The position numbers and the translations under genes were made by a program. A stretch of 64,000 bases of DNA from a virus (Duplodnaviria; Caudoviricetes): positions 10,136 through 74,135 of IMG/VR virus record IMGVR_UViG_3300020045_002727; one strand, 5' to 3'. Below the pieces are notes generated by a model that saw only the letters and a list, made by a program, of their open reading frames with translations, ran no database searches and was not told the origin of the DNA. This document shows positions 2,799 to 58,509 of this stretch, one piece after another (the stretch's first letter is position 1; each line of letters begins with the position of its first letter).

Positions 2799-3418
2799 AA
2801 TTAAGGGAAAATATATTTGTTAAGAGTAAACCAGAAGTTACTCAAAGATTGAAAGAAATTTTTAGTAGTTCTGAATATGGAACTGGAGGTTTTAATTTTA
2901 ACGACTACGAGGACACAATGGCGTACGGAATATATAATGGGATGGTTCATGCTTGTTGGGATGGACACACTTTTAAAGATATAGTTCTAACAGACAATCC
3001 AGAAGATTTGATTGAGAAAGACCAGCCTGAAATAATAGGACATGATTCACCAGCTCCAGCTATGCGCCAGTTTGAATCAGGTGCTACTCGCAATCTTGAT
3101 GAAAATAAGCTAGACTTTGAAGGATTTTTATCACCATTAGTGTTGGAAAGATTTGCAGAGTACATGCACACTCACAGATTACAAGCTGACGGTAAGTTAC
3201 GTGATAGTGACAACTGGCAGCGTGGAATCCCCGTTGATGCTTACATGAAGTCGATGTGGAGACACTTTTTTGACGTTTGGAAAGGTCATAGGGGACTTGA
3301 AACACCAGAGGATAAAATTACAAATCTTTGTGCATTGATGTTCAATGTTCAAGGGATGTTGCATGAATTAATTAAAGTAGATGAAAAAAGAAAACTGGAA
3401 GAAAACAATTCACAGTGA
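2795..3418 (+). CDS. dATP/dGTP diphosphohydrolase-like (DUF5664-type) domain with N-terminal extension
   Basis: RQFESGATR...KLDFEGFLSP...RDSDNWQRGIP...KSMWRHF in the C-terminal half. Confidence 0.75.
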   Translation: MKLRENIFVKSKPEVTQRLKEIFSSSEYGTGGFNFNDYEDTMAYGIYNGMVHACWDGHTFKDIVLTDNPEDLIEKDQPEIIGHDSPAPAMRQFESGATRNLDENKLDFEGFLSPLVLERFAEYMHTHRLQADGKLRDSDNWQRGIPVDAYMKSMWRHFFDVWKGHRGLETPEDKITNLCALMFNVQGMLHELIKVDEKRKLEENNSQ

Positions 3419-3875: not shown

Positions 3876-5437
3876 TGGAACAACCAAAAGAAATCGCATT
3901 CGGAGACGATGCAAGAAAAGGATTAAAGAATGGTGTTGACTTATTAGCCAACGCTGTAAAAGTAACACTTGGAAGTAAGGGACGTTTCGTAGTATTCAAT
4001 GGTAAAGATGATAAGGCACATGCAACCAAGGATGGTGTAACAATTGCAAAACAAGTTACATCACTAGACCCTATTGAAACATTAGGGATAAAAATGATTC
4101 GTGAAGCAGCCGAGGAAGCCGCCAGAGAATCTGAGGATGGTACGACTACAGCAACGGTTTTAACACAAGCTATTGTAGCTGAGGGTTATAAATTGATTAC
4201 AGCTGGTGCTAATCCAATTGATGTTAAACGTGGTATTGATAAAGCAGTCATAGAGGTTGTTAGGTTTTTAAAGTCAATGTCGAAAGAAATTGATTTGAAT
4301 GATTCAGATGTTCTAAAAATTGCAACATTATCAGCCAACGGTGAGAAAGAAATCGGTCAATTAGTTTACGATGCATTCTTGAAAGTTGGTGAGAAAGGAA
4401 TTGTTACAGCTGAATATTCAGAGGATGCAAGTACTTATATTGATGTTGTAGAAGGTATTAAAATTGAAAGGGGTTTTGCTAATCCTTATTTCATCACCAA
4501 TCCAGCAACAAAAGAAGCAATTTTAGAAGAGCCTAGAATTTTACTTTATGATGATAAAATTACATCATTTAAGGAATTAATCCCTATTTTAGGTCAAGTT
4601 GGTGAGGCTGGTTTATCTGTATTGGTTATGGCTAATGATTTTGACCCAGAAGTTGTAGCTACAGTTGCAACAAATAAATTACAAGGTCGTCTTAAAATCT
4701 CAATGATTAAAACACCGAACTTTGGTGAGTTGAATAGGGAGATTCTTGATGATGTGGCTAAAGCTACAGGTAGTAAGGTCATATCTAAAAAAGGTGGTGA
4801 TTCATTAGAAACCATGACACTAGAGGATTTAGGTGAAGCCACTAAGGTGATTTCAAACTACACTGAAACAGTAATCATCGGTGGTAAAAATGACCCAGCT
4901 GAACTAAAAGAATACATTGACTTCTTGAACGCTATTGAAGGAGACCCTTATTCTAAGGAGAGAGTTGCACGATTGATGGGTGGAATTGCTGTAATTTACG
5001 TTGGTGCTATGACCGATGTGGAGATGAAAGAGAAGAAAGACCGTGTTGATGATGCTATTGGAGCAATTAAATCAGCTGTATCAGAAGGAATTTTAGTTGG
5101 TGGTGGTTCTACGTTAGTTAGGGCAGCTCAGGCTATTACAGTGCCTAATATAGCTAATTATGATGAAGAGCTTGGTGTAGGTCTTGTTAAGAGAGCTATT
5201 CAAGTTCCATTGAAGACTATTGTTAGCAATGCTGGACAATCTGGTGAAGTTGCTTTGTATTTAGTTACTGGTAATCCACTTTACAGTATGGGTTACGATG
5301 TTCGTACAGGTGGACTTGTTGATATGTTTGATACAGGTGTATTAGACCCTACAAAAGTTACTAGAATTGCATTGGAGACAGCGGCTTCGGTAGCTGGTGT
5401 TATATTGACAACAGATTGTGTATTAGGTAATTATTAA
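3875..5437 (+). CDS. groEL: Chaperonin GroEL (Cpn60)
   Basis: AVKVTLGSKGR, TKDGVTIAK, DGTTTATVL, KKDRVDDA, GILVGGG, GVLDPTKV; no GGM tail. Confidence 0.97.
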   Translation: MEQPKEIAFGDDARKGLKNGVDLLANAVKVTLGSKGRFVVFNGKDDKAHATKDGVTIAKQVTSLDPIETLGIKMIREAAEEAARESEDGTTTATVLTQAIVAEGYKLITAGANPIDVKRGIDKAVIEVVRFLKSMSKEIDLNDSDVLKIATLSANGEKEIGQLVYDAFLKVGEKGIVTAEYSEDASTYIDVVEGIKIERGFANPYFITNPATKEAILEEPRILLYDDKITSFKELIPILGQVGEAGLSVLVMANDFDPEVVATVATNKLQGRLKISMIKTPNFGELNREILDDVAKATGSKVISKKGGDSLETMTLEDLGEATKVISNYTETVIIGGKNDPAELKEYIDFLNAIEGDPYSKERVARLMGGIAVIYVGAMTDVEMKEKKDRVDDAIGAIKSAVSEGILVGGGSTLVRAAQAITVPNIANYDEELGVGLVKRAIQVPLKTIVSNAGQSGEVALYLVTGNPLYSMGYDVRTGGLVDMFDTGVLDPTKVTRIALETAASVAGVILTTDCVLGNY

Positions 5438-12484: not shown

Positions 12485-12516
12485 TTTGGAGGGTATTAAA
12501 ATTTATTATATCTTTG
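12485..12516 (+). promoter_or_regulatory. Bacteroidota sigma-A promoter (-33 TTTG / -7 TATCTTTG)
   Basis: TTTG 12485-12488 and TATCTTTG 12509-12516; ATG follows at 12521, possibly leaderless. Confidence 0.85.
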
Positions 12517-12520
12517 CCTC

Positions 12521-12622
12521 ATGAAAATAATCAGACTGCATATAATAATAGCACTTCTAACATTAGAAGTATTAGTTCAAGACCCTCATATGGGTCATGA
12601 GGTAGCGTGTTTAATGGTGTAA
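12521..12622 (+). CDS. Putative attenuator leader peptide 1 (MKIIRLHIIIALLTLEVLVQDPHMGHEVACLMV)
   Basis: 33-codon ORF between a promoter and a terminator hairpin, upstream of tRNA array 1. Confidence 0.7.
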   Translation: MKIIRLHIIIALLTLEVLVQDPHMGHEVACLMV

Positions 12623-12645
12623 TAATTTTATGCTAAATATATACT

Positions 12646-12677
12646 AAGCCTCCTCTCGAAAGACTGGAGGCTTTTTT
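12646..12677 (+). terminator. Intrinsic terminator / attenuator upstream of tRNA array 1
   Basis: AAGCCTCC-TCTCGAAAGACT-GGAGGCTT followed by a T run. Confidence 0.85.
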
Positions 12678-13532: not shown

Positions 13533-14033
13533 ATGATTAGAAATTCAAAACAAGTAGAGTTAACAAAATTAGCTTATAATAAAGGATATAGAGTTTTAGA
13601 AAATGGAGATGTGATAGGACTTAGAGGTAAGAAATTAAATCTTTTTGAAAACAGTAAAGGATATTATTGTTTCACTATAAGAAGAAAAGATAAATGCCCT
13701 ACTTATACATTTGTTCATAAATTAAAAGCCTATCAATTATTTGGAGATGAATGTTTTAATGAAGGAATTGTAATTAGACATTTTAATGGTAACAATAAAG
13801 ATAACTCAGATATTAATATTAAAATTGGAACTCAATTTGATAACATGATGGATATGACACCATTACAGAGAAAGTTAAATGCGAGTAGTCCTATTCATAA
13901 TCATTCTGAAATATTGAAAGATAGAGAATCTGGAATGACATATAGAGAAATACAAGAAAAATACAATATTTCATCTAAAGGAACAATTAGTTTTATTGTA
14001 AACAAATCAATGAAGAAAGAAAAACTAAAATAA
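13533..14033 (+). CDS. HNH homing endonuclease inside tRNA array
   Basis: FVHKL...VIRHFNGNNKDN...GTQFDNMMD; C-terminal HTH-like segment. Confidence 0.85.
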   Translation: MIRNSKQVELTKLAYNKGYRVLENGDVIGLRGKKLNLFENSKGYYCFTIRRKDKCPTYTFVHKLKAYQLFGDECFNEGIVIRHFNGNNKDNSDINIKIGTQFDNMMDMTPLQRKLNASSPIHNHSEILKDRESGMTYREIQEKYNISSKGTISFIVNKSMKKEKLK

Positions 14034-49818: not shown

Positions 49819-50556
49819 TTATAAGCAGAATGAATCAACTACTACGTTAATGTCAGCATCTGGGTAGTAATTTATTGTTAATGGGTCTAAAGAATCTGTT
49901 GTTAAGTTTGATAAACTCATCTTACATTGATAGGTATCATAAGTAAAAATGCTGTTGTTTATATTATTTTGGTATATCTTATCTCCTACAACGGGTAAAT
50001 CTCCAGCTCCATCATGGTACACTGGTATGTTCGTAACACCACTCGCTGAACAAGCATCAACTAAAGAAGATTCAGAAACATAAAATAATTTTCTTGTTGG
50101 TTCAGTCACTTTCCAATAAACATTTTGTTTCTCTGTAACCACTCCACCATTATTAGCAATGTAAGTTGCTAAAGCATCTGGAACATCTTCCCATGTATAA
50201 GTGTTCATTAAATCTGCCAGAGTTAATGTGTAGTATGTAGGGATGTTGTCTTGGTCTAAACTTGGGGTTGTCCCACCCCCATTAAAATTTATAAGTGGGT
50301 TCAAGGCTGCTATAACTTCTGTTATGTCAGTACTAACTACACCGTCTATTTCTATCTCACTTAGTAATGTTGAAGGCATGATAGGTTTATCATTCTCAAT
50401 ATAATCTAAACGTAATTTCAACTTGTCTAAATCTAATCCAGAGTTTGTTTGCTCCATGTCAGTATAGACGATTTTAAATAGACCTTTAGCATAAGGTAGA
50501 CCATCTAATGTGAATAATTTTGTGTCATCAATAACACTTGTTTCAAAAATTACCAT
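49819..50556 (-). CDS. Putative virion/tail protein
   Basis: 245 aa; LPVVGDKIY beta-domain; first gene of the fibre operon. Confidence 0.5.
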   Translation of the reverse strand: MVIFETSVIDDTKLFTLDGLPYAKGLFKIVYTDMEQTNSGLDLDKLKLRLDYIENDKPIMPSTLLSEIEIDGVVSTDITEVIAALNPLINFNGGGTTPSLDQDNIPTYYTLTLADLMNTYTWEDVPDALATYIANNGGVVTEKQNVYWKVTEPTRKLFYVSESSLVDACSASGVTNIPVYHDGAGDLPVVGDKIYQNNINNSIFTYDTYQCKMSLSNLTTDSLDPLTINYYPDADINVVVDSFCL

Positions 50557-50581
50557 AGTTTTTTGTTTTTATATGTTTATG

Positions 50582-50589
50582 CAAAGATA
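50582..50589 (-). promoter_or_regulatory. -7 promoter element (TATCTTTG)
   Basis: CAAAGATA on + strand upstream of the ATG at 50556. Confidence 0.75.
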
Positions 50590-50591
50590 AT

Positions 50592-50626
50592 AAAAAAGGT
50601 CTAACCAACTTTATTGATTAGACCTT
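50592..50626 (-). terminator. Terminator closing tRNA array 2
   Basis: Minus strand AAGGTCTAA-N13-TTAGACCTT then TTTT. Confidence 0.8.
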
Positions 50627-50630
50627 GTTG

Positions 50631-50701
50631 AAATCATATTGGGAGTCGAACCCAAACCTTTAATTTTGCAGACTAAATGCTTAACCGTCAGCCTTATGAT
50701 T
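50631..50701 (-). tRNA. tRNA-Cys(GCA)
   Basis: TTAGT-CTGCAAA-ATTAA; AATCATA/TATGATT; U73. Confidence 0.88.
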
Positions 50702-50703
50702 TG

Positions 50704-50776
50704 TGGGGCAGGTGAGAATCGAACTCACTCCTCTGGTTTTTCAGACCAACGCTTCTACCAAGTTAGCTTCTCCCCC
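50704..50776 (-). tRNA. tRNA-Phe(GAA)
   Basis: TTGGT-CTGAAAA-ACCAG; GTGAG-TTCGATT-CTCAC. Confidence 0.9.
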
Positions 50777-50827
50777 AGTATAGCCTTAATCAGTTATAAA
50801 CAATGTTTATAGCCTTTTAAGGTTTTG

Positions 50828-50896
50828 CACAACCCCAAGGAATCGAACCTTGTCCTACACTTTTGGAGAGTGTTTGGCTGCCATAGCCTGAGAAGT
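50828..50896 (-). tRNA. tRNA-Trp(CCA)
   Basis: ACACT-CTCCAAA-AGTGT; CAAGG-TTCGATT-CCTTG. Confidence 0.85.
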
Positions 50897-50901
50897 AGTT
50901 G

Positions 50902-50973
50902 CTGCTCCTAATGGACTCGAACCATTATAAACTGATTAACAGTCAGCCGTAATTACCTTTATACGAAAGAGCA
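50902..50973 (-). tRNA. tRNA-Asn(GUU)
   Basis: GCTGA-CTGTTAA-TCAGT; TGCTCTT/AGGAGCA; G73. Confidence 0.92.
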
Positions 50974-50978
50974 TTTTG

Positions 50979-51063
50979 CAGAAAGTAAAGGTCTCGAACC
51001 CTATGCGAATAAACGCACCACAATCTTAGCAGGATGTGCTGACACCTAGTCAGTCTACTTTCT
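50979..51063 (-). tRNA. tRNA-Ser(GCU)
   Basis: Loop CTGCTAA; long variable arm GTGCG-TTTATT-CGCAT; G73. Confidence 0.88.
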
Positions 51064-51068
51064 ATTTG

Positions 51069-51154
51069 CAGAAGATAGAGAAATCGAATCCCCATCAGGT
51101 ACTACCCGATGCCATGGGGTTCAAGCCCACTTTGTCACCTTGACGGTATCTTCT
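51069..51154 (-). tRNA. tRNA-Ser(UGA)
   Basis: GTGGG-CTTGAAC-CCCAT; 7-bp variable arm; AGAAGAT/ATCTTCT; G73. Confidence 0.88.
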
Positions 51155-51230
51155 ATAATCGTATCGAGACTTCTGACGTAAGCAGTGTATATAATACTTA
51201 CCGAATTAACTCCCTTTATGAGACTCAACG

Positions 51231-51311
51231 TGGGGAGGTGTGGACTCGAACCACTCCCTTGCGGACGGATTTTACAGACCCGTTGCTAAATCCAATTAGC
51301 TTTACTACCCC
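51231..51311 (-). tRNA. tRNA-Tyr(GUA)
   Basis: CGGGT-CTGTAAA-ATCCG; variable arm TCC-GCAA-GGG. Confidence 0.85.
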
Positions 51312-51348
51312 AAAATGATAAAGCCTCCAATCTTTCGAGAGGAGGCTT
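51312..51348 (-). terminator. Attenuator terminator upstream of tRNA array 2
   Basis: Minus strand AAGCCTCC-TCTCGAAAGATT-GGAGGCTT-TATCATTTT; 27 of 28 nt identical to the hairpin at 12646. Confidence 0.85.
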
Positions 51349-51376
51349 AAATTTTCAAACTATAAATAGCTTCACA

Positions 51377-51448
51377 TTAAGACATGTCCTCTCGATAGCC
51401 ATTCCAGCTATAGAAATTAAACGAGTTATATGTGTTACAATTTTTCAT
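51377..51448 (-). CDS. Putative attenuator leader peptide 2 (MKNCNTYNSFNFYSWNGYREDMS)
   Basis: 23-codon ORF; 15 of 23 residues are N/Y/S/F/W/C, the amino acids of the downstream tRNAs. Confidence 0.8.
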   Translation of the reverse strand: MKNCNTYNSFNFYSWNGYREDMS

Positions 51449-51470
51449 AATTTTGATTTTTAAACCGTTA

Positions 51471-51764
51471 TTAAACAGTTGTTGCAATTTCGATGTTTGG
51501 TGCAATTTCATCCAATACGAATGTGTATGCTCCAGTTGCTTTCACTATTGTTGCAGTGAACACAAAAATTTTGTAAGGTGTTTTACCTGTTAAAACTACT
51601 TTAGCTGCTGTAATGTCTGTTACCAATGCTGGATTTTTAGCATAAGTTTCTTCAACTTCCCTTACTTTTGCAATAGCCGCTTCAACAGCTTCATAAGTTA
51701 AAACTCCTGCGCTTGTACATGAGAATGTAATATCTCTTAATCCTGTTCCGTAAACTCCTGCCAT
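51471..51764 (-). CDS. Small Ala/Thr/Val-rich protein (possible capsid decoration)
   Basis: 97 aa with capsid-like codon bias and its own promoter. Confidence 0.55.
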   Translation of the reverse strand: MAGVYGTGLRDITFSCTSAGVLTYEAVEAAIAKVREVEETYAKNPALVTDITAAKVVLTGKTPYKIFVFTATIVKATGAYTFVLDEIAPNIEIATTV

Positions 51765-51793
51765 AATATTTTTCCTTTAGTTATTATTTTCAG

Positions 51794-51801
51794 CAAAGAT
51801 A
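51794..51801 (-). promoter_or_regulatory. -7 promoter element (TATCTTTG) for the 97-aa gene, leader 2 and tRNA array 2
   Basis: CAAAGATA on + strand. Confidence 0.75.
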
Positions 51802-52783: not shown

Positions 52784-53752
52784 TTAGTTGTTTAAATTGT
52801 TAAAGTACCACACTCTAGCTTTATTTGATATAGCCGAGGTCACTTTTTTAATTTCTAGGTTGTTCTGTTCGATTGTATCTTTTTCTTCCTTTAAAACGTC
52901 TGAAATAACCCATCTTAAAAATTCACCAGTATTCTTCTGGGTTGTTTCAATTTGCATTTCTTTCATGTAAGCTAGACCTTGTTCTAAACGATTGGTTGTA
53001 CAAACGTTATCAACAAAATCGCTGATTTTACTTATTTGCTCAACATCAACTGAATTTAGTGTTTTAACTTTTGATACAGAATGTTTCTCACCTTTTGATT
53101 TGAATTTAAGCTCTGGGTTTGTTGTGCATGTGAATACAATACCTTCACCAATTCCAGATACACCAAATGCTTTGGCTACAGGACATTCATTTTCAACTTG
53201 AAGAGTCATTTCGATTAGCTTGTTTTGAGATAGCTCTGGGTTGTTGAAATCAATGTCGATTGAGAATGTTTGAAATTGATTAATGTTGTAAATTTCTTGA
53301 TTGGTGTCTGATACATTCGGTATGTTCACCCATTCATCATCGATTTTAATTGCAAAAACTACAAACATTTTAGGTAATCCTGTGATACCTACACCTTTTT
53401 GGATATTACCACCACACCATTCACCGTAAATAGCCATGTAGTCTTTGTATTCAAAATCTGCAAATAACATTGACAAGTCTTTCTGACTCATCTCAGCATA
53501 GAATCCAGCGTTATCAGAACCTTCCGATAAAACCCTCTCCCTTGATTGAAACTCTGTTCGACCATCTGCGTATCGCACAATGGCGGCATTAGTCCCGTGG
53601 AGCTTTACAGTCCCCTCGAATCTTAATGTTGGGTAGGGTGATGTGTGAGCATAAATTGCATTACCTTCTTCGTCTAACCCTTGGAAATCATGTTGTGTTT
53701 TTACTTTGTGAACAATGTTTCTAAATTGTTCAGTACTTGGATATTTTTTCAT
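52784..53752 (-). CDS. RNA ligase (Rnl2-like)
   Basis: TVKLHGTN (motif I), YGEWCG, GEGIVF, FKSKGE. Confidence 0.88.
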   Translation of the reverse strand: MKKYPSTEQFRNIVHKVKTQHDFQGLDEEGNAIYAHTSPYPTLRFEGTVKLHGTNAAIVRYADGRTEFQSRERVLSEGSDNAGFYAEMSQKDLSMLFADFEYKDYMAIYGEWCGGNIQKGVGITGLPKMFVVFAIKIDDEWVNIPNVSDTNQEIYNINQFQTFSIDIDFNNPELSQNKLIEMTLQVENECPVAKAFGVSGIGEGIVFTCTTNPELKFKSKGEKHSVSKVKTLNSVDVEQISKISDFVDNVCTTNRLEQGLAYMKEMQIETTQKNTGEFLRWVISDVLKEEKDTIEQNNLEIKKVTSAISNKARVWYFNNLNN

Positions 53753-53753
53753 G

Positions 53754-54002
53754 TTAAATGTATTTTATTGTTTTACCTTTTAATGACAGCTCCCTGATGT
53801 CATGTTCTTGAATTAATTTTTGTATTGTTTTGTCTACAAACTGACCACCCACGAATGAGATATACATTTCAATTGATTTTTGAAACAACTCTGGTTGTAG
53901 GTATGTTTTACCTTGTTTAACACGTTCATCTACGTAAAATTCGTACATTATTTGAATAGTGTTGTTTTCGTTTAGGAGATTGATTATTCTTTGTTTGGTC
54001 AT
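53754..54002 (-). CDS. Hypothetical protein
   Basis: 82 aa, coupled to its neighbours. Confidence 0.65.
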   Translation of the reverse strand: MTKQRIINLLNENNTIQIMYEFYVDERVKQGKTYLQPELFQKSIEMYISFVGGQFVDKTIQKLIQEHDIRELSLKGKTIKYI

Positions 54003-54718
54003 GTTGTTTTATTAAATCTGTTATACAATCGTTTTGTCTGCACCTCTGAAAACTCATTCCCTTTACTTGTCTTAAATCCCAAAGTGTTTAACTGCTTTGT
54101 TATAGCATAGAAACTCTTTTTGGCATCATTTCTGAGCGAAACTATCAACGCACCTGCTTTGATATTATCCGCATCATTTTGAGCCTTTAAAGACCTTGAT
54201 TTGATACTATTCTCTCTGGCTTCTGGTGAAAGGTTTTTTGGTGTTCCGAGACTTGTTACAACATTACCACTTTTTGACGTATGTGGAATGCCGTTGTCAA
54301 TCTTAGATTTTATCACTCCAAGTGCTGATTTTGTTCGCTCTGAGATTTTTTTAACCTCATCCTTGGCTATGGAGAATTTTAGTTCTTTCAGCAAGGTGTT
54401 GTCGTGTGGTGAGTCACTTTCGATGAATGTTACGTTGAGTTGTTCAAGGCGTAGCATTATTTCTAGTCCACCACGAGATAGACGGTCAAATTTCTTAACA
54501 ACTAAGATTGCATTAATCTTTGCTGCATGTTCAACTGCTCTCCAGAGATTCTTACGGCTGTTGGACTTACCAGATTCAATGTCGGTATACTCAGCTATTA
54601 CTTCACCATTGATGGAGGAAACGTAGCGGTTTACATCTTGACGTTGAGATTCGAGTCCTAGACCTGAATCACCTTGTGATTTTGTTGATACACGGTAGTA
54701 TGCTATGAATGTTTTCAT
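53999..54718 (-). CDS. Serine recombinase (resolvase/invertase family)
   Basis: YYRVSTKSQ catalytic Ser motif, DIESG, FDRLSR; C-terminal HTH-like segment. Confidence 0.92.
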   Translation of the reverse strand: MKTFIAYYRVSTKSQGDSGLGLESQRQDVNRYVSSINGEVIAEYTDIESGKSNSRKNLWRAVEHAAKINAILVVKKFDRLSRGGLEIMLRLEQLNVTFIESDSPHDNTLLKELKFSIAKDEVKKISERTKSALGVIKSKIDNGIPHTSKSGNVVTSLGTPKNLSPEARENSIKSRSLKAQNDADNIKAGALIVSLRNDAKKSFYAITKQLNTLGFKTSKGNEFSEVQTKRLYNRFNKTT

Positions 54719-58406: not shown

Positions 58407-58478
58407 TACGGAATAGCATAATGGTAATGCAATAGTGCGAAAGCACTACGTATATCGGTTCGACCCCGATTTCCGTAT
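58407..58478 (+). ncRNA. tRNA-shaped RNA with GAAA tetraloop in place of anticodon loop
   Basis: TACGGAA/TTCCGTA, GCAT-AATGGTA-ATGC, TAGTGC-GAAA-GCACTA, ATCGG-TTCGACC-CCGAT. Confidence 0.85.
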
Positions 58479-58509
58479 CAAATAATTATAAACTAAAATC
58501 ACGACAGCT

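Follow-up and report, generated by a model that had tools for sequence, protein, structure and literature searches.

The window analysed here is a 64-kb stretch (GC content 34%) of a 74,135-bp virus record that carries direct terminal repeats and was judged complete. On its minus strand, relaxed ARAGORN searches recovered seven tRNA genes in the order Tyr(gta), Ser(tga), Ser(gct), Asn(gtt), Trp(cca), Phe(gaa) and Cys(gca) (array 2; 50630..51311, with tRNA-Tyr beginning at 51311). Standard ARAGORN returned five of these and missed both serine genes, Ser(tga) at 51154..51068 and Ser(gct) at 51063..50978, which are corroborated by homologous arrays in relatives. The array is closed by a hairpin and T run (50592..50625, minus strand) that were read directly from the sequence, and the next -7 box follows at 50582-50589.

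Upstream on the same strand, a promoter box, a gene for a 97-aa protein, a short ORF (leader 2) and a terminator hairpin precede the array; leader, terminator and array are referred to as unit 2. The promoter, likewise read by eye, is a promoter-like -7 box of Bacteroidota type (51794..51801, minus strand); the nearest cultured phages sharing the device infect Cellulophaga. This is the sole promoter-like box upstream of leader 2, and its 8 nt recur identically before leader 1 of a second tRNA array and after tRNA-Cys. Taken from the ORF list, the 97-aa gene (51471..51764, minus strand) is cotranscribed ahead of leader 2, which begins 22 nt behind the stop of this translated gene. The 97-aa protein had no match in PHROG, returned no relatives when searched alone in viral contigs and bore no relationship to the structural protein encoded behind unit B of Cellulophaga phage phi38:1.

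Several other features were recorded in the surroundings. An Rnl2-type RNA ligase (PHROG 548, E 3e-57) is encoded at 52784-53752 (minus strand), 1.3 kb upstream of array 2, and its position adjoining tRNA genes hints at tRNA repair; a resolvase-like ORF lies farther upstream of it (53999-54718). A tRNA-shaped gene at 58407-58479 received a two-base anticodon call from ARAGORN, and the same oddity occurs at 3468-3539 of L032, a relative found via the RNA ligase. The ligase-found relatives as a group (L010-L032, ~60% identity) were rejected as a comparison set, the array being absent beside their ligase and their whole records holding few or no tRNAs.

Leader ORFs and their tRNA arrays

Leader ORF 2 occupies 51377..51448 on the minus strand and comprises 23 codons and a stop, exactly as the original prediction had described it. 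Direct reading of the codons against the array also bore out the claim that 14 of the 16 codons from 3 to 18 (51395..51442, minus strand) encode Asn, Cys, Tyr, Ser, Phe or Trp, precisely the six amino acids of the seven tRNAs; only Thr6 and Gly17 fall outside this set. Both serine isoacceptors are represented, as had been proposed, by one TCG and one AGC codon that correspond to the Ser(tga) and Ser(gct) genes. Leader 2 ranked first by composition among the window's 627 short ORFs (ATG start, 15-45 codons): a score of 14/16 was reached elsewhere only when this leader was itself read from an in-frame ATG farther upstream, and a single short Ser-rich ORF exceeded its overall fraction of set residues. 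The background share of the six residues was 24-29%. Against gene- or nucleotide-derived backgrounds, the binomial probability of this composition was 2e-6 to 3e-4. The locus thus has the short upstream ORF, enriched in the relevant codons, that characterizes leader-peptide attenuators. AT-rich genomes do abound in Asn, Tyr and Phe codons, and a random short ORF beside an ordinary terminator might in principle resemble such a leader; the rank and the low binomial probability (about 1e-5) argue against chance, and recurrence of the arrangement in four further lineages and in phi38:1 effectively refutes it, leaving it a negligible probability.

Five homologues of the 97-aa protein were found, and comparison was made across four homologue contigs and one more distant relative from a metagenome scan, a 79% relative (P0002) being left out. 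Relatedness measured on the upstream 97-aa protein was 92% for L036/L037, 66% for L038, 62% for L039/L040/L042 and 46% for L043, and all of these share the layout of gene, short ORF, terminator and tRNA-Tyr. Their leaders span 23-29 codons, with 12-14 of the best 16 codons in the six-residue set and, in each, TCG plus an AGC or AGT serine codon, although as descendants of a common ancestor the leader 2 homologues are not independent samples. After the first few codons, which are common to them, the residues follow in a different order, and between the window and L038 the frame itself differs through a 1-nt indel. The terminators differ in both sequence and length, each ending 7-10 nt before tRNA-Tyr. 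A search of viral contigs with the conserved leader-start pattern returned only the record G006, which holds L042.

The contig L041 provides a natural control, in which the 97-aa gene runs directly into a terminator, a new promoter stands behind that, and neither array nor leader is present. This bears on the reading that the hairpin is a constitutive, leaky terminator of the 97-aa gene and that the short ORF yields a small peptide with a separate role that has nothing to do with the tRNAs. The presence of a terminator behind this gene even where there is no array speaks for it, as does the fact that the window, L036, L038 and L039 have leaders identical in residues 1-5. Yet where the array is missing the leader is missing too, and beyond those first residues it is composition that stays matched across lineages while residue order, and even frame, vary. 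Moreover, the three leaders of phi38:1 described below differ greatly in composition and each fits its own array, and a peptide function leaves unexplained the purine tract that is complementary to each terminator. We consider this reading quite improbable.

Comparison with the closest relative points to exchange of the tRNA genes themselves. Between the window and L036, DNA identity is 97-98% across the leader, spacer and terminator (98.6% for the leader) and 88.8% in the 97-aa gene, while within the arrays (50630-51311 against 4449-5156) tRNA-Tyr, both Ser genes and Asn are only ~50-67% identical and Trp, Phe and Cys 90-100%. The array is therefore mosaic, and the contrast with the conserved switch in front of it suggests that tRNA cassettes have been exchanged while the switch was held constant. 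The most distant contig, L043, carries an array (525-918) of only Tyr, Trp, Phe and Cys, with a tRNA-free stretch of 84 nt between Trp and Phe. Its leader still holds six Asn and two Ser codons despite the absence of Ser and Asn tRNAs; since the contig is only 1.9 kb long, the missing genes may lie elsewhere in that genome.

The window also contains a sister unit on the plus strand (12521..12673), made up of leader ORF 1 (12521-12622) and a second copy of the terminator (12646-12673) in front of array 1. Array 1 has its own promoter, and its leader of 33 codons draws 23 of 32 residues from its own array's set and just one from the set of array 2. Leader 1 pairs weakly with its hairpin copy, and this may reflect recent copying of the array 2 terminator to the other array. 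G006 likewise has a leader 1 (25 of 28 residues in its own array's set) with its own terminator, so that this record holds two different terminators, each with a clear antiterminator. An ORF of ~166 codons lies inside array 1 of the window, between tRNA-Ile and tRNA-Met (13534-14033), and is followed by a promoter-like box; it may be a homing-endonuclease-like insertion.

Among cultured viruses, Cellulophaga phage phi38:1 (NC_021796.1, Pervagoviridae) carries three promoter-leader-terminator-tRNA units served by one promoter in three copies, each lying ~4 nt ahead of a leader's start codon; the leaders comprise 25-29 codons. Unit A precedes tRNAs for Lys, Ile, Gly, Met, Asp, Thr, Val, Arg and probably Ala, with 15 of leader codons 2-17 in its own set; unit B precedes Tyr, Ser, Ser, Asn, Trp, Phe and Cys (12/16), and unit C Pro, Glu, Gln, His, Leu and Arg (13/16). 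Scored against the non-cognate sets, the same leaders are depleted (0-4/16), and enrichment for the own set together with depletion of the other also holds for both units of the window and of G006. Pooled over nine units, which are partly related and include imperfect automatic array calls for L043 and phi38:1 unit A, matched residues filled 106 of the 135 positions within codons 2-16 and 48 of the 100 beyond them (Fisher p 2e-6). The phi38:1 record annotates these leaders as longer hypothetical proteins or omits them, and the transcriptome paper on this phage does not mention terminators or promoters and does not treat control of these units (PMC5335546). In addition, the -7 box ends ~4 nt before the start of leader 1 (window 12509-12523) and of all phi38:1 leaders (L048 ~455-470, 1915-1932 and 3158-3175), a spacing that implies leaderless or nearly leaderless mRNAs for leader 1 and the phi38:1 leaders.

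Terminator, putative antiterminator and ribosome-masked folding

Folding placed a terminator stem-loop at 51321..51348 (minus strand), with an outer stem of 8 bp (arms 51348..51341 and 51328..51321) and an inner stem of 2 bp, followed by a U-rich though interrupted tract (51312..51320, minus strand) that separates it from tRNA-Tyr. The gap from stem to tRNA-Tyr is 9 nt, in agreement with the predicted distance of about 10. The hairpin occurs in only two copies in the genome (51321-51348 and 12646-12673), each directly before a tRNA array; the copies are identical at 27 of 28 positions while their leaders differ completely. No -7 box was found in the sequence between terminator and tRNAs or between the 97-aa gene and tRNA-Tyr, and array 2 would therefore be transcribed only by read-through of the hairpin. 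An intrinsic terminator accordingly stands between the leader and the first regulated gene, with no promoter intervening.

The duplicated hairpin invites a reading in which the element acts as untranslated RNA or is bound by a protein, for instance to direct processing or to recruit a phage antiterminator, and the open frame is incidental. Two near-identical copies, both before tRNA arrays, and the 97-98% DNA identity of the leader region between the window and L036 are in keeping with such a site. However, an open frame of 23-29 codons and matched composition is kept in every lineage, and a search of the leader region (50400-51800) against Rfam (E up to 1) returned the tRNAs and no other family. 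The hairpin sequences of the relatives are, furthermore, unrelated to one another, so that no specific protein site is conserved, and we regard this reading as highly improbable. A scan of viral contigs with an exact 16-nt hairpin pattern returned only chance matches in unrelated GC-rich genes with no tRNAs nearby and was discarded.

Within codons 18-21 of the leader, the segment 51387..51395 (region 2, the 5' strand of the putative antiterminator; minus strand) is the exact 9-nt complement of 51343..51335 (region 3, the 3' strand; 51335..51343, minus strand). The predicted complementarity to the 5' arm of the terminator is thus perfect in sequence, but its placement needs amending: only the first 3 nt of the target, the last three of the outer 5' arm, lie in the 8-bp outer stem, and the rest spans the inner 2-bp stem and part of the loop. 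The antiterminator of the window consequently takes just three of the eight outer stem pairs. A perfect 9-nt complement arose in 44 of 20,000 shuffles (~0.2%; 100 nt upstream against the 20-nt arm plus loop), and the best region 2 duplex has a free energy of -17.1 kcal/mol. When the upstream region was shuffled with dinucleotides preserved, the observed pairing was reached in 15 of 300 cases for the window and 16 of 300 for L043, which is borderline, and so often for L038 and L039 that upstream pairing of their 5' arms is not significant. By its perfect complement and the masked folds described below, the window has a predicted antiterminator that excludes the terminator and whose 5' strand lies under a finishing ribosome, with weaker support in the relatives by these shuffles.

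Covariation of the antiterminator in homologues, put forward with the original prediction, was not borne out, as a cross-lineage duplex matrix lacked cognate specificity: region 2 of one lineage pairs about equally well with the terminator of another. A MAFFT alignment of six leader regions was unreliable between the leader start and the U tract. In each unit, however, a purine-rich tract in codons 16-21 lies opposite a pyrimidine-rich 5' arm, and given the lack of cognate specificity the antiterminator appears to rest on this conserved purine tract facing a pyrimidine-rich arm rather than on strict covariation. In the window, L038, L039 and L043, the purine tract (window 51383-51395) is also followed 3-7 nt later by ATG or GTG, resembling a ribosome-binding site plus start; this may be a coincidence or a second tiny ORF.

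The effect of ribosome position was modelled by folding the nascent transcript truncated at the loop, at a stage when the 3' arm has yet to emerge, under a 28-nt ribosome mask reaching 15 nt upstream of the A-site codon and 12 nt downstream of it. In the window, the 5' side of the terminator was paired upstream with a probability of 0.85 while the A site stood on codons 2-15; from codon 16 to the stop this fell to 0.14-0.24 at most positions, with 0.43 at codon 23. A switch point near codons 15-17 was likewise obtained for L038, L039, L043, phi38:1 units A, B and C and leader 1 of G006. The proposal that a stalled ribosome frees the 9-nt segment and a finishing one covers it is thus reproduced in silico. 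With the whole terminator present, by contrast, the terminator was the equilibrium fold at every ribosome position, and as it always wins at equilibrium the switch must be kinetic, as in classical attenuators. A protector (1:2) pairing was seen in the full-length fold of the window, whereas in its nascent fold the antiterminator beats the protector. The protector is clear in phi38:1 unit B: with no ribosome on the RNA, part of its leader imitates the terminator arm and sequesters region 2. The ORFs of L043 and phi38:1 unit C run on beyond region 2, which is thus left uncovered by a ribosome at the stop.

These folds also bear on the reading that leader translation controls the array by another route or with the opposite sign, for instance if a ribosome close behind the polymerase suppressed the terminator or blocked Rho or RNase, so that fast decoding would yield more tRNA. 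That the equilibrium fold always favours the terminator, that the antiterminator statistics are moderate and that the ORF runs beyond region 2 in L043 and phi38:1 unit C all lend it some weight. On the other hand, the matched codons are concentrated at positions 2-16, upstream of region 2 and not beside the terminator, and the stop lies at least 28 nt before the hairpin, out of reach of a terminating ribosome. Together with masked folds that are coherent with classical logic in eight units, this makes control by another route or with the opposite sign unlikely in our judgement.

Proposed mechanism and its place among known systems

Unit 2, in our view, quite probably serves to gate a phage tRNA array by ribosome-mediated transcription attenuation. 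The classical attenuator geometry originally proposed for these tRNA genes is supported, though not proven, by the anatomy of the locus, its recurrence in relatives and in phi38:1, and the masked folds. Transcription would start at the promoter of the 97-aa gene and pass through the leader ORF into the terminator abutting tRNA-Tyr, the seven tRNAs being made only by read-through. On this model the leader would be translated by a ribosome coupled to RNA polymerase. Were that ribosome slowed at codons for Asn, Cys, Tyr, Ser, Phe or Trp, with its A site within codons 2-15, the 9-nt segment that spans codons 18-21 would be left uncovered and would pair with the emerging 5' side of the terminator; no terminator would then form and the tRNAs would be transcribed. 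Under fast decoding, the ribosome would instead cover the 9-nt segment en route to the stop, the terminator would form and transcription would end. Both the direction and the size of such a response are inferred, and its outcome would be a feedback loop holding the supply of exactly those tRNAs that the array encodes.

Phage tRNA genes are usually viewed as constitutive passengers that fix a mismatch in codon usage or counter tRNA-cleaving defences, and to our knowledge the regulation of phage-carried tRNA genes is essentially unknown. It is fairly likely that phages of Bacteroidota hosts run tRNA homeostats, in which each block of tRNAs is switched on only when decoding of its own codon families slows. 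A phage equipped in this way would top up or replace host tRNAs on demand, for example under mismatched codon usage or depletion by a host anticodon nuclease. If the leader indeed lists the roster of its array, the phage would be gauging translation speed for each codon family and answering with the matching tRNAs. Should this hold, it would be the first case of leader-peptide attenuation of tRNA genes and the first single leader to read six amino acids, extending a textbook mechanism (trp and his attenuation) to new target genes, a new host phylum and viruses. Because the same design is present in the cultured pair of phi38:1 and Cellulophaga baltica, the model is directly testable. Since a leader spells out which amino acids its array serves, it can, moreover, flag tRNA genes missed by standard finders, as with the two serine tRNAs here. 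Full-text literature searches turned up no account of a leader peptide or attenuator placed ahead of tRNA genes or of phage tRNA arrays.

Multivalent leaders are familiar from enterobacteria, where ilvGMEDA senses Ile, Leu and Val and thr senses Thr and Ile, alongside the trp, his, leu and phe leaders. Like these amino-acid operon leaders, unit 2 has a short leader in which regulatory codons are frequent, an intrinsic terminator that precedes the first gene under control, and a competing pairing that involves the terminator's 5' side, with the position of the ribosome deciding between the two; as in ilv and thr, several amino acids would be sensed by one leader. Unlike them, it targets tRNAs rather than biosynthetic enzymes, would read six amino acids at once, has no promoter of its own but sits behind a protein gene, and belongs to a phage of a Bacteroidota-type host, with no sequence or Rfam relationship to the enterobacterial leaders. 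The pheST (pheM) attenuator of E. coli controls phenylalanyl-tRNA synthetase and senses one amino acid. Here, too, a component of the decoding machinery is attenuated and the output corrects the sensed shortage, but pheST regulates a synthetase gene in response to a single amino acid, whereas unit 2 would control tRNAs. The E. coli tRNA-Phe genes pheU and pheV were considered as a precedent for a Phe leader and rejected, since their sequences contain plain promoters and no leader ORF.

T-box elements, typical of Firmicutes, bind one uncharged tRNA directly and without translation. They resemble unit 2 in that a decision between terminator and antiterminator reports the state of a specific tRNA, but the conserved part of unit 2 is an ORF with matched codons: no T-box sequence, specifier loop or stem I was found, and the Rfam search of 50400-51800 gave no match to the T-box model. 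The closest counterparts are the units of phi38:1, which are examples of this very device; leader composition and tRNA order (Tyr, Ser, Ser, Asn, Trp, Phe, Cys) are shared between unit B and unit 2. What sets the phi38:1 units apart is that every one of them is served by a promoter of its own, ~4 nt ahead of the start codon, and that the tRNAs of that phage are split over three arrays.
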